A model generated the notes under the pieces. It saw nothing but the letters and a program-made list of their open reading frames with translations, searched no databases and had not been told where the DNA came from. Below, piece after piece: positions 53,679-57,467 of a stretch of 64,000 nucleotides of DNA (position 1 is its first letter; every line of letters starts with the position of its first letter). The DNA lies in the NCBI GenBank assembly GCA_963765495.1, contig CAVXWP010000002.1, positions 480,001 through 544,000 on the forward strand. Direction: 5' to 3'. Source of the DNA: Blastocatellia bacterium. GTDB taxonomy: Bacteria; Acidobacteriota; Blastocatellia; UBA7656. A program made the position numbers and the translations under genes.

Positions 53679-53784
53679 TAATCGATCTCAACGGCTTGCT
53701 GATGCGAAAAATTGGAACTAACCTTGAGCAGCGGCTTTGAATTTGTGTGGAGCAGACTTTCAGGCCACCTTTGAAGGAGCGATT

Positions 53785-54435
53785 ATGATAAGTCATTCGA
53801 GGTTATTGATTGCGCTTTTTACTATTACGTTGATATTTGCGCTAAGAGTGGCGGGTGCGGCTCAGGAGTCATCCGGCCAGGACACGACGAGAAAGCCGCG
53901 TCCTTCCCGCTCAGATCAAAAACCCGCCGATGAGACGGTCGTAAAAGACGACGCGGAAAATGCACTTGAAACCACTGACCAGGCAATGCGCCGTGTGATG
54001 GTGCGCCTGTCGGATCAGATAGGACTGCTCACGAATGAGGTCAAACGACTTCGCAAAGAGACCGAGCGCAATTCACAAACGATGGAGCTTTTGCTTTTGG
54101 AAGAGCGTCTCGCAAGAGTCGAATCAAAACTCGAAGATGCGCAGGACCAGAAATATCAATTCGATGCGCAGGAACTCGACATTCAGCGCCGCCAGCAAAA
54201 CATCCAGCAGGAGGTGATGTTGAGAGGCGGATTGCGGCGCGATGAAGCCGAACGGGCCATCCGCGCAGAGTTCCAGCGCGCCCTGGAAAACATCCACAAA
54301 CAGCAGGAGTTTTACGAGCAGCGCATAGCCGAACTCCAGGCCGAAGCCGAACGCCTCCGCCTGCGCGTGCAAACTCTCAGATTAAAGCTTGAACCGCCAG
54401 ACGAGCCAAAAGAGCCGTCTCAGCAACAGGACTGA
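53785..54435 (+). CDS. Secreted long coiled-coil protein
   Basis: SD AAGGAG, signal peptide (AGA-AQ), Q/E/R-rich heptads. Confidence 0.75.
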   Translation: MISHSRLLIALFTITLIFALRVAGAAQESSGQDTTRKPRPSRSDQKPADETVVKDDAENALETTDQAMRRVMVRLSDQIGLLTNEVKRLRKETERNSQTMELLLLEERLARVESKLEDAQDQKYQFDAQELDIQRRQQNIQQEVMLRGGLRRDEAERAIRAEFQRALENIHKQQEFYEQRIAELQAEAERLRLRVQTLRLKLEPPDEPKEPSQQQD

Positions 54436-54459: not shown

Positions 54460-55707
54460 TCAGCGATCAACAATCGTTACCTTGCATGGAATCTCGACCC
54501 GGGGGTTCTGCGGATCATCCGTATCTACTCGCAGGACTCCATTGTATCTCCCCGCGACAGGATGGCTTTCCGGGTTCCACTCTATCTTGACGACATAATT
54601 GCTGCCCTCGACGACGGTTTGCAGACTCAGTCTGAGGAAAGGAAGCGATGACTCGAGTTTGATCGGATGGAATGTGCCTGCAAGCTTTCTTATACCTGCT
54701 CTCCCGAGTCTCGGACTGAACGTATTGAGATTCGATAAAGAAACCTTGCCAAGATCGACCACATCGGGCGTATGAACCAGGCTTTCACCCAAAACGTTGA
54801 GGGATAGCTCTATCGCCAGCCCTTCGGAATCCGCCCCTTCGGGCTTGAGAAGGATCGGCACAGAGCGAGTACCCGCCTCGCTCATCGGATCAACATCAAC
54901 GCTCAATTTGTAGCCGTTCCCCTCGTCGCTCAGTTTATATTTAACCGTTCCGGCAGCACCGGAGGTCAGTAGCAGTTTCCGAGCCTCCTCGCCTGCGGGC
55001 CTTATTCTGAGCCAGAAGCTGAAAGCTTTGCCTCGCTCAAGCGTGATTGCCGGGTGAGCCGATGGCCAGATTTTGAAATCGCCGGAGGGCTCGCCAAACT
55101 GGGTATTGGCATTGGCAATGCGCTTAACAAAATCTGGAAGAGCGATTATCACGCCAAAGACCCTCAGTTTTATAACCGGGTGGCTCGGGTCGTTGGTCAG
55201 CAACTCGAAGTTTTGCTCCAGAGGGCCAACTTTGTCTGCGACGTGAATTGCTATGCGAATGGTGCCAGCCTGACCAGGCTGTATGACTTTTGGAAAGTAA
55301 AAGTCAACCGCGCTACATCAGACGGGCGACCGGGGCGCGAGAGAAAACTTTGCCTGGAAGAGGTCAAAGCGAATCGCGGCGCGGGGTTTGGCCGATTTTT
55401 TGATTGACGCCTTTCGAGTTGCGGGTGTTTCGGCTTGAGAGAGTTCAAGAGGCGCGGCCCCGGCATTCTTCACCACGAACAATTGCATGAGTTCTTCGCC
55501 TACGACTACTTCGCCGAGGTCTTTACTCCCTGCGCCCATAACGAGCAGCGGCAGACTCGAAGCAGATTGCTGCCGTTGGCCCCTGGCTTCGGCAGTAATA
55601 AAAGGTAAGGCGGGCAGCAGCAATGCCATGAAGAAGGCTAAAGAGCGCAGAGCGCCGTAGCGTAAAATGCTCGGGTGTGACATTGAATGGAGCGATCGTT
55701 CCGGCAT
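54460..55707 (-). CDS. Exported DUF1573-like (Ig-fold) protein interrupted by one in-frame TGA at 55318-55320 (recoded gene or nonsense pseudogene)
   Basis: ORFs 55318..55707 and 54460..55203 are in the same frame. The sequence between them is open: ...RSPV*CSAVDFYFPKVIQPGQAGTIRIAIHVADKVGPLEQNFELLTNDP..., which completes the DUF1573 pattern begun by DLGEV..F..KNAGAAPLEL. Confidence 0.7.
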
Positions 55708-55810
55708 GATTAAAAACGTATACAGTTTGAGCGCGTCAGGGTTTAAGTTCTTTCACACGCGCTCATCTGAGATTTCACAAGTCTCAAATCTCGGCTTGTA
55801 CAGAACGATT

Positions 55811-56683
55811 CTACTCTGAATCCTTTTGCAGAGGCTTTATTCCCGCCTGACGATTCAATACATAATCGAAGAGTCTTTCGGGCAGGAAACGTTTAGCCGC
55901 AATCGCCAGTCGCGCGTGTCGTGGAGCGGCATAGCGCGGGCGCGGATGCTCTGATGTAAGCGAGCGCATAATGAGTTCGGCTATATCGTCGGGCTTGCCT
56001 GCCATCCGCCTCATCCGTTCATACCCTTGCTTGAAATTCTCATAAAACGGCGCGTATGGACTCTCTTTCTCGACGATGGGTTTCGATACTTCATTGGCTA
56101 CCTGAAGAAATTCGGTGACTATAAAACCGGGCTCGATTACGACTACCTTGATGCCAAACGGAGCAAGCTCTCCGCGCAATCCGTCGGAGACGGCTTCGAG
56201 CGCGTGTTTTGTTGCGTCGTAGACGGAAGAGAGCGGGCGGGCAACTCGCCCGGCGACGGAGCTGACATTGACTATGCGCCCGCTTCTCTGTTTTCGCATT
56301 ATGGGAATGACAAGCTGGGTGAGCGCGATCAGAGAAAAGAGGTTTGTCTCGAAATTCCGGCGGATGTTTTCGATGGGGACCATCTCGATGGGACCGCGCT
56401 GGCCGTATCCCGCGTTGTTGACGAGCGCGTCGATGCGGCCTGTCATGCCGAGGGTTTCGCGCACGATTCGCTCGCGGTCTTCGTCCCGCGTGATGTCTGC
56501 CGGTATTGCGAGCGCGCTTCCCCCCGAGGCTTCGATTTCGCCTTTCATCTGTTCGAGCCGCTCGCGCCTGCGCGCAACCAGCACGATCAGCGCCCCTTCG
56601 CGCGCAAGCATGTAGGAGGCGGCTTCGCCTATACCGGCCGACGCGCCCGTTATTATTACTACCTGTCCGTCAAGTCTTCCCAT
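55811..56683 (-). CDS. SDR family oxidoreductase
   Basis: TGASAGIG, NNAG, SS and YDATK (YxxxK) motifs. Confidence 0.93.
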   Translation of the reverse strand: MGRLDGQVVIITGASAGIGEAASYMLAREGALIVLVARRRERLEQMKGEIEASGGSALAIPADITRDEDRERIVRETLGMTGRIDALVNNAGYGQRGPIEMVPIENIRRNFETNLFSLIALTQLVIPIMRKQRSGRIVNVSSVAGRVARPLSSVYDATKHALEAVSDGLRGELAPFGIKVVVIEPGFIVTEFLQVANEVSKPIVEKESPYAPFYENFKQGYERMRRMAGKPDDIAELIMRSLTSEHPRPRYAAPRHARLAIAAKRFLPERLFDYVLNRQAGIKPLQKDSE

Positions 56684-56735
56684 AAACCCTTGAAGCTCAG
56701 ATTTTCAGATTTCAGATTTGAGGAATCTAAATCCG

Positions 56736-57467
56736 TTAGAACTTGGATGAGAGATAATATCTGACCATGCTGCGCCAGGTAGGCCAGTCGTGCGGCTGGT
56801 CATGGCCCCACATATCCAGCTCGTGAGGGATGCCCTTACTGGCCAGTATCCCCGACAATCGCTTCGAGCCTTCCGGGTTTTCCCATTGTCCCTGCCCCGT
56901 GACTATATAGATGAGTCTCTTCTGTTGCAGGAGCCAGAGGTCGTGGTCTCCCATATTCGGCAGATAGTCAACCGGGTTGTTGAAATAGATATTGTCATCG
57001 TAATAATCGCCCGAAAAGTAATGAAGTATGTCGTAATCGCCGCTCATCGCGAGCACGCCGTCAAACAGATCGGGTCTGCGAAATAACTGGTTGGCTGCAT
57101 GGAATGCGCCCAGGCTGGCCCCGCCTGTTATGATGCCTATACGGCTCTGACAGCTATTCCAGATAAACGGGACTATCTCATTTGCGATGTAATTATTGTA
57201 CTGCACCTGCCGCCACGCTTTTTCACCCGGATGCACACTGTCATTGAGCCAGCTAGCCCGGTTGATGCTGTCGATGGAAAAGACCTTGACCTTTCCCGCT
57301 TCGATAAACTCAGCCATCGCGTCAATCAGATAGAACCGCTCGTATTCCAGAAAATCTGCCGCCGCCGTCGGGAACATCAGCAGCGGGAATCCATAATGAC
57401 CATAGGTGACGATTGACATGGGGCGATTCAGACTTGGGCTGTGCCAGGTGTCTATATTTCTATGCAT
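56736..57467 (-). CDS. Esterase family alpha/beta hydrolase
   Basis: WHSPSL, YGHYG.PLLMFPT, GASLG nucleophile elbow and HDWPTW. Confidence 0.88.
   Translation of the reverse strand: MHRNIDTWHSPSLNRPMSIVTYGHYGFPLLMFPTAAADFLEYERFYLIDAMAEFIEAGKVKVFSIDSINRASWLNDSVHPGEKAWRQVQYNNYIANEIVPFIWNSCQSRIGIITGGASLGAFHAANQLFRRPDLFDGVLAMSGDYDILHYFSGDYYDDNIYFNNPVDYLPNMGDHDLWLLQQKRLIYIVTGQGQWENPEGSKRLSGILASKGIPHELDMWGHDQPHDWPTWRSMVRYYLSSKF

Follow-up and report, generated by a model that had tools for sequence, protein, structure and literature searches.

How is the TGA codon read that interrupts an otherwise continuous reading frame in a 64,000-nucleotide (nt) stretch of Blastocatellia DNA? This stretch, hereafter the window, corresponds to G000:C2:480001-544000 in a genome of 7.3 Mb, and the frame occupies positions 55707-54460 on its minus strand. 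Comparative analysis indicates that these positions very probably form one gene, encoding an exported protein of three immunoglobulin (Ig)-like domains in which UGA130 would be decoded as selenocysteine (Sec, or U in motifs). The protein is a variant of the catalogued DUF1573/OS_HP2 family and not a new family. It is marked by a U-C motif, a split domain, and a two-hairpin Sec insertion sequence (SECIS) that lies outside the usual range of distances from the UGA. The original prediction, made from the sequence alone, had put forward a secreted selenoprotein whose U and C are vicinal and whose SECIS is an atypical one of two hairpins; this proposal gains support from the conservation of the TGA, the presence of Sec machinery, constraint on the RNA, covariation, and the absence of the hairpins from cysteine (Cys) forms.

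From the ATG at 55707 to the terminal TGA at 54462-54460, the minus strand holds a single frame of 415 sense codons, whose sole internal TGA, at 55320-55318, is codon 130. The claim that one frame is broken only at this TGA is thus confirmed. The product around the stop reads ...APRSPV-U-CSAVDFYFPKVIQPGQAGTIRIAI...LLTNDP, and the translated context after U130 can be written APRSPV-U-CSAVDFYFPKVIQPGQAG...TNDP. In the alignment of orthologues, the protein is conserved both before the TGA (H-D-F-G-E-V-F-A-G-E-E...N-x-G-x-A-P-L-E-L-S) and after it (C-x-x-x-D-F-x-F-E-K-V-I-Q-P-G-Q-A-G...T-N-D-P), and the codons flanking the TGA vary. Since the half-domains on both sides of the TGA are conserved as protein and family models bridge it, the NF041425 match beginning at U130, the frame is considered to be one gene.

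A first six-frame search of 40 relatives recovered orthologues of 35-46% identity, each match with exactly one TGA. The orthologue is present in 51 of the 53 genomes of one Blastocatellia family, the two genomes that lack it having completeness values of 89% and 72%. Exactly one TGA is found in 50 of the 51 orthologue-bearing genomes, and in the 51st (G058) the gene ends at a contig edge just past the column. When the loci from several searches were pooled and duplicates dropped, 45 distinct orthologues remained, with pairwise identities of 30-95% (median 44%). In all 45, the TGA occupies one and the same alignment column, with an invariant Cys immediately after it, and neither a Cys nor any sense codon occurs at the TGA column in these 45 sequences; conservation of the TGA, which the original prediction had proposed as a check, was therefore found. 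The carriers are metagenome-assembled genomes of Blastocatellia or Acidobacteriota. An even draw of 401 genomes from the phylum included three of this family, all of which match. No orthologue-level match was obtained in the 398 others (best score elsewhere, 81.8 bits), and no Cys-containing orthologue was found across the 53 family genomes and these 398.

The resemblance to DUF1573 on which the prediction had relied was recovered in part. Both PF07610 (residues 136-183) and NF041425, OS_HP2_seleno (residues 130-187), match the protein, but both scores are below the cut-off (22.5 bits for 26.1 and 41.1 bits for 100, respectively), so that the link, though real, is weak. Position 41 of the NF041425 profile is aligned to U130. 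The placement of Sec at the first Cys of the motif is backed by this start of the profile match, by the codon alignments, and by the beta-sandwich of an AlphaFold2 (AF2) model. More distant relatives show what else can occupy the site. All 16 Cys-form relatives taken from other families of the phylum have C-G-C-T or C-G-C-S here, in agreement with the S-C-G-C-T motif that the original prediction gave as normal for DUF1573 domains at this point. The family genomes also carry U-G-C DUF1573 paralogues, in a form of ~365 amino acids (aa) and in a small form. All 45 orthologues have U-C; among the 19 U-x-C paralogues, 18 have U-G-C and one U-A-C. Both paralogue forms occur in the genome of the window, as a three-domain U-G-C protein of ~365 aa at G000:C8:515300-516265 (L045) and a small U-G-C form of ~185 aa at G000:C9:496227-496505 (L056; 81.9 bits). 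The former passes both NF041425 (101.7 bits) and PF07610 (83.5 bits), the latter only the Pfam model. Compared with the C8 paralogue, the protein studied here lacks the Gly, has domain 1 split by an insertion of 27-60 aa, and has a hairpin-1 loop two codons longer. Between the N-x-G motif and U there are 49 residues in this protein and 15 in paralogues without the insertion, which confirms the basic insertion of ~35 aa noted at the outset. The length and sequence of this insertion vary among orthologues.

Downstream of the UGA, the mRNA is predicted to form two successive hairpins. Hairpin 1, UGACUUUU-ACUUUCC-AAAAGUCA, begins about 11-12 nt after the UGA and has 8 bp, a 7-nt loop, and a folding energy of -5.3 kcal/mol. 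Hairpin 2 has 6 bp and a folding energy of -9.3 kcal/mol, and its GGUC loop begins 42 nt past the UGA. Both lie where they had first been drawn and fold better than most shuffled sequences, with 1/200 and 4/200 shuffles as good, respectively; the distances originally given, which put hairpin 1 at 11 nt and the hairpin-2 loop at 42 nt from the UGA, also hold. Jointly, the two hairpins reach -15.2 kcal/mol (z -3.0). A scan of the 7.3-Mb genome for an in-frame TGA within an open frame, followed 16-48 nt downstream by a GGUN tetraloop hairpin of at least 6 bp, returned four hits. Two of them are DUF1573 genes, this one included, and the combination of TGA and hairpin is thus not attributable to chance. 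The position of loop 2 at ~42 nt and the basic insertion, both entered as caveats when the gene was first described, proved to be features of the whole orthologue group and not errors.

Is it the RNA or the protein that is conserved in this region? Codon entropy was taken from the codon alignment of the 45 orthologues, at columns with a conserved amino acid. Only at codons +5 to +16, a stretch that coincides with both hairpins, does synonymous-site entropy fall close to zero; relative entropy elsewhere is about 0.5-1.0. The frozen codons are GAC (44/44), AAA (38/43), GTC (43/44), CAG (39/42), CCT (44/45), GGT (44/45), and again CAG (44/44), with GAC at D+5 and GTC at V+11 belonging to hairpin 1. 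They are minority codons: at other conserved Pro columns CCT is used in 73 of 377 cases, and at other conserved Gly columns GGT is used in 58 of 511. It is well supported by the sequences that the constraint across the hairpins acts on the RNA, and not on the protein.

The original prediction had asked whether the hairpins covary. Hairpin 2 does. In a MAFFT alignment of 38 Sec genes, 90.2% of its cells are paired and three pairs change on both sides, whereas controls slid along the alignment reach at most 59%. Its covariation score is 0.248 for a shuffled mean of 0.084, a value reached by none of 500 shuffles, although kinship among the sequences inflates such tests. In the paralogues, the letters of hairpin 2 differ (CCGCCU-GGUA-AGGCGG, CUCCU-GGUC-AGGAG, and CGACCC-GGC-GGGUCG). 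An alignment of 64 Sec genes, fitted to a covariance model of the two hairpins that was itself built from 23 orthologues, has 92.9% of the cells of both helices paired and 33 compensatory cells, with 0/500 shuffles reaching the score. This model, which contains the TGA itself, recovers 64/64 Sec genes and no Cys form at E <= 0.001, the best Cys-form hit having 20.2 bits and an E value of 0.015. In hairpin 1, a single double change was seen, U-A to C-G, which keeps the helix in the U-A-C paralogue L130. As hairpin 1 varies so little, the case for it is made not by covariation but by its conservation and by the fact that Cys forms lack it.

The Cys forms keep much of the peptide D-F-D-K-V-I-x-P-G, with varied codons. 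A GGUN tetraloop hairpin is found in 17 of the 19 U-G-C and U-A-C forms, as against one of the 16 Cys forms, and the mean folding energy is -10.95 kcal/mol in the former and -6.6 kcal/mol in the latter. Hairpin 1 is closed by GAC..GTC in 43/45 orthologues, 18/19 U-G-C or U-A-C forms, and 1/16 Cys forms. A natural within-genome control is provided by a C-G-C paralogue on the same contig (L157, C2:185940-186215), which is without both hairpins. The tandem hairpins recur in both in-genome U-G-C paralogues, where 39 nt separate the UGA from the tetraloop. Other loci combine several types. In another Acidobacteriota family, two tandem DUF1573 paralogues lie ~1.2 kb apart (L149/L150, G071:C41), one a Sec U-G-C form with the tetraloop hairpin and the other a Cys C-G-C form without it. 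The U-A-C Sec type (..FTAD-U-A-C-E.., L130:3105 onward) is encoded a few kb from a U-C orthologue (L092) on the same contig.

How do these hairpins compare with a known bacterial SECIS? The model described in PMC13188914 has a stem of 4-16 bp that carries a loop of 3-9 nt, a minimum free energy <= -7.5 kcal/mol, a G within positions 1-2 of the loop (usually as GG or GU), and 16-37 nt between UGA and loop, with some SECIS elements outside the model. Hairpin 2 agrees with the model in its loop, stem (6-7 bp), leading G, and energy, but its loop is farther from the UGA, at 42 nt here and 39 nt in the U-G-C paralogues. As in the consensus, the element lies in the coding region directly after the UGA, and hairpin 2 shares the 4-nt G-G-U loop on a G+C-rich stem of 6-7 bp. 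The SECIS loop of E. coli fdhF is also GGUC. Unlike the consensus, there is an extra conserved hairpin between the UGA and the SelB-type hairpin, and no conserved lower stem. RNAfold does draw a lower stem enclosing both hairpins in a three-way junction, but it was rejected, as the energy gain relative to shuffled flanks in 64 Sec genes had a mean z of 0.12, with 4/64 below -2. In two UshA-like Sec genes of the same genome (G000:C8:339409-340707 and G000:C9:836222-837553; L154-L156), an in-frame TGA follows ..TCG, and a hairpin with a GGC loop lies about 27-28 nt past the UGA; their scores are below the NF041198 cut-off. The long spacing therefore belongs to the DUF1573 genes and not to the organism.

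A mechanism that would accommodate this geometry can be proposed. SelB carrying Sec-tRNA(Sec) would bind the GGUC tetraloop of hairpin 2, and hairpin 1 would act as a folded spacer without which hairpin 2 would be too far away. With hairpin 1 left out of the count, the UGA and the loop would be only ~21 nt apart in the U-C type and ~24 nt apart in the U-G-C paralogues, inside the usual range. In the E. coli geometry, the mRNA leaves the ribosome about 12 nt past a UGA in the A site. Hairpin 1, which starts ~12 nt after the UGA, may thus sit approximately at this exit point. In the product, Sec130 and Cys131 would form a vicinal pair where the disordered basic insertion ends within the DUF1573-type domain.

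Several observations weigh against the selenocysteine reading and the mechanism proposed for it. The spacing of 42 nt between UGA and GGUC loop exceeds the 16-37 nt of the consensus, and hairpin 1, whose loop is at a canonical distance (21-22 nt), has no G in its first two loop positions. Hairpin 1 is nearly invariant, with one compensatory cell in 64 sequences, and it is partly constrained by the protein, since the D-F..K-V amino acids are common in the Cys forms too. The fitting of the 64-row alignment to the covariance model, and the TGA within that model, count here as well. None of the 45 orthologues has a Cys at the site, so that the Sec/Cys pairing is seen only with more distant paralogues. 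Residues U130 and C131 lie where the predicted local distance difference test (pLDDT) of the model is below 50. The neighbouring dehydrogenase, esterase, and coiled-coil protein give no clue to function, and a function derived from the neighbourhood was rejected. Finally, RNAalifold applied to the orthologues alone prefers a fold in which CUGAU, a stretch spanning the UGA, is paired with GUCAG from the loop region of hairpin 2 (55266-55320). This pairing was set aside as a candidate: covariation is absent, L008 and L014 disrupt it, and in paralogues that read GGUAAG it cannot arise.

Among the alternatives, the one that survives best concerns only the division of labour between the hairpins. 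Hairpin 2 alone could be the SECIS, with hairpin 1 either a by-product of the conserved D-F..K-V codons or a pausing element, and not a needed spacer. We regard this as possible but rather unlikely. It would account for the fact that all compensatory changes but one fall in hairpin 2, for the conservation of D-F-D-K-V as protein in the Cys forms, and for the Sec form L149 from another family, which is without the GAC..GTC closure, though RNAfold draws a shifted hairpin there. Against it stand the codons of hairpin 1, whose synonymous sites are frozen in Sec forms (GAC 44/44, GTC 43/44, AAA 38/43), given that the Cys forms encode the same amino acids with varied codons and show the closure in 1/16, and the double change of the U-A-C paralogue, which preserves the helix.

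A second alternative would do away with selenium altogether. The UGA could be read through outside the Sec system, by a near-cognate tRNA inserting Trp, Cys, or Arg and with stimulation by the hairpins, to yield a short and a long isoform. Downstream structure can indeed stimulate stop-codon readthrough in general, and the GGUC loop is spaced beyond the consensus SECIS range. However, the genome holds a complete Sec machinery, whose genes the original prediction had suggested looking for: selA (566 bits), selB (374 bits for a cut-off of 242), selD (386 bits), and a tRNA-Sec (71 bits with Rfam) with anticodon UCA according to ARAGORN. In addition, selB is family-wide, scoring above the cut-off in 50/53 genomes. 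The UGA falls at the first Cys of a C-x-C motif, where 16/16 distant relatives have Cys and 19 paralogues have Sec, a pattern that is classic for exchange between Sec and Cys. The hairpin-2 loop, which reads GGUC or GGUA, is of the SelB type and fits the consensus. Two isoforms made by programmed readthrough, the other option initially offered, found no support, as the 129-residue short product would be an incomplete domain, half a beta-sandwich with a disordered tail. Such readthrough is therefore judged very improbable. A general reassignment of TGA was also rejected. Besides ending this gene, TGA is the stop codon of 21 of the 43 orthologues for which the locus includes the gene end, and 26 of the 37 long open frames in the window are closed by it, which indicates that TGA is an ordinary stop and the code standard.

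The gene is so far unannotated, and public gene calls hold truncated fragments only: the ten public relatives of the C-terminal part are all fragments of 230-274 aa, labelled hypothetical protein or unnamed. Automatic gene calls of this kind speak for two distinct genes, a pseudogene, or a misassembly at the TGA, but these explanations are practically untenable, with conserved coding sequence running directly up to and away from the TGA, a domain split by it, and the same TGA in 45/45 independent assemblies, the last of which excludes an assembly error. Selenocysteine at codon 130 thus remains the preferred reading, and the features of the gene under this reading are collected in Table 1.

Table 1. 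Positions in the window of the gene, its predicted protein regions, and its RNA elements.
Feature	Positions	Strand	Basis
Whole selenoprotein gene	54460..55707	minus	415 sense codons including UGA130; orthologues alignable end to end
In-frame TGA, codon 130, predicted Sec codon	55318..55320	minus	TGA column in 45/45 distinct orthologues
Cys131, partner of U130 in the vicinal U-C pair	55315..55317	minus	invariant in orthologue alignment; TGT/TGC in 45/45
Probable Sec-type (secretory) signal peptide, residues 1-41	55585..55707	minus	predicted from sequence; A-E-A before predicted cleavage site
Ig-like domain 1, first half, residues 50-93 (..LGEVVVGEEL..F.V.N.G.APLELS)	55429..55560	minus	Pfam HYDIN/VesB-like Ig match at residues 63-95; pLDDT ~90; conserved
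Basic variable insertion, residues 94-129, splitting the DUF1573-type domain	55321..55428	minus	pLDDT <50; not in U-G-C paralogues
Ig-like domain 1, second half, residues 131-190, with IQPGQAG strand and TNDP	55138..55317	minus	PF07610 at 136-183; NF041425 at 130-187; pLDDT 84-93
Two more beta-sandwich domains, residues ~197-305 and 310-415	54463..55119	minus	AF2 model; C8 paralogue has the same architecture
Hairpin 1, core GACUUU...AAAGUC at 55305-55285	55284..55306	minus	folding, frozen codons, absence in Cys forms
Hairpin 2, CAGCCU-GGUC-AGGCUG, loop at 55275-55272	55266..55281	minus	putative SelB-binding apical stem-loop; covariation, frozen codons

The AF2 model, computed on the orthologue alignment, has a mean pLDDT of 78.8 and contains three beta-sandwich domains, with low-confidence segments at residues 3-48 and 94-132. 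The product begins with a hydrophobic stretch that resembles a signal peptide, and orthologue N-termini are hydrophobic too. U130 and C131 are the only conserved Cys-type residues of the protein. A Foldseek search against the PDB returned only tandem Ig/ASH-type proteins with TM scores of 0.17-0.28; with matches of this kind at such low scores, a function drawn from the fold was rejected.

The gene has recurrent neighbours. A short-chain dehydrogenase is encoded at 24/39 loci, an esterase-like gene at 21/39, and a convergent coiled-coil gene at 21/39, and the gene neighbourhood showed no connection with metal or mercury genes. In the window, the coiled-coil gene (53737-54435, plus strand) is directly downstream and convergent; its product has a signal-like N-terminus and no Pfam match. 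Neighbour genes are 66-75% identical across loci. Over the region 54460-57467 (loci L090-L128), the selenoprotein is 35-46% identical across genomes, compared with 66-75% for the syntenic dehydrogenase and esterase-like gene. The selenoprotein thus evolves far faster than its syntenic neighbours, yet its UGA and hairpin codons are frozen.

The family to which the protein belongs has been encountered before. OS_HP2 was predicted as a selenoprotein family in Olavius symbionts by Zhang and Gladyshev in 2007 (PMC1976440), when it comprised two Sec genes and had no Cys homologue. A 'DUF1573 domain-containing protein, PF07610, motif UGC' is tabulated in PMC9312934 and in Table 1 of PMC13188914, the latter a 2026 table of 119 families and subfamilies with one DUF1573 entry. 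By the rule stated with that table, a different Sec motif defines a distinct subfamily (PMC13188914), and the U-C form would be a distinct, unlisted one. No description of a U-C form of a DUF1573/OS_HP2 selenoprotein was found in the full-text literature, supplements excepted. The two forms share an Ig-like exported domain with Sec at the first Cys of C-x-C, just before the I-x-P-G strand, and the same downstream two-hairpin RNA with a GGU(C/A) tetraloop over the P-G codons. They differ in the motif itself (U-C here, U-G-C there), in the disordered insertion of 27-60 aa that splits the domain here, in the loop of hairpin 1, which is longer here, and in the distance of the tetraloop from the UGA (42 nt here, 39 nt in the U-G-C form). 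Moreover, this protein scores under both curated cut-offs (41.1 vs 100; 22.5 vs 26.1), and across the 53 family genomes and the 398 others the U-C form was found in one Blastocatellia family only.

Adjacent Sec and Cys residues are known from other selenoproteins. Table 1 of PMC13188914 gives GxUC for a CopZ-like (2Fe-2S)-binding protein and CU for SaoL, HgcA, SaoC, MbdU, and the KCU-star family, and the families with such motifs listed there are mostly metal-related. Sec and Cys are neighbours in the chain in these proteins and in the one described here; the folds and contexts are unrelated, and the order is C-U in most listed cases whereas it is U-C here. The present pair is located at the end of a disordered insertion. 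In mammalian thioredoxin reductase, the C-terminal GCUG places its pair on a flexible segment. Our best guess is that the site may serve in extracytoplasmic redox chemistry or soft-metal binding, as a selenenylsulfide or a selenolate/thiolate pair, a suggestion drawn solely from the Sec-Cys pair and the catalogue of adjacent Sec/Cys families. A bolder proposal, to which we give clearly less credence than to its opposite, combines both peculiarities of the gene. In this gene and its U-G-C paralogues, the spacer hairpin at the mRNA entrance of the ribosome, with a SelB-binding GGUC tetraloop 39-42 nt from the UGA, farther than present SECIS search models allow, would constitute a distinct SECIS class. 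The Sec-Cys pair on its flexible basic arm, carried by an exported Ig-like scaffold, would be a swinging site for redox or soft-metal transfer. If true, the mobile Cys-Sec arm of thioredoxin reductase would have an extracellular counterpart in bacteria.

What does the locus mean beyond this genome? The tandem-hairpin signal, with its loop outside 16-37 nt, offers a concrete example, open to testing, of a SECIS beyond the reach of standard search models, and natural controls for the signal exist in the Cys forms and in the U-G-C forms with their different spacing. The Sec-Cys neighbour pair would be a second kind of Sec site in the DUF1573 fold. For the organisms themselves, the gene would represent a family-wide Blastocatellia selenoprotein that has been cut in two by gene callers and missed by curated family models. 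With such a selenoprotein missed, selenoproteome counts for these abundant soil Acidobacteria would be too low.

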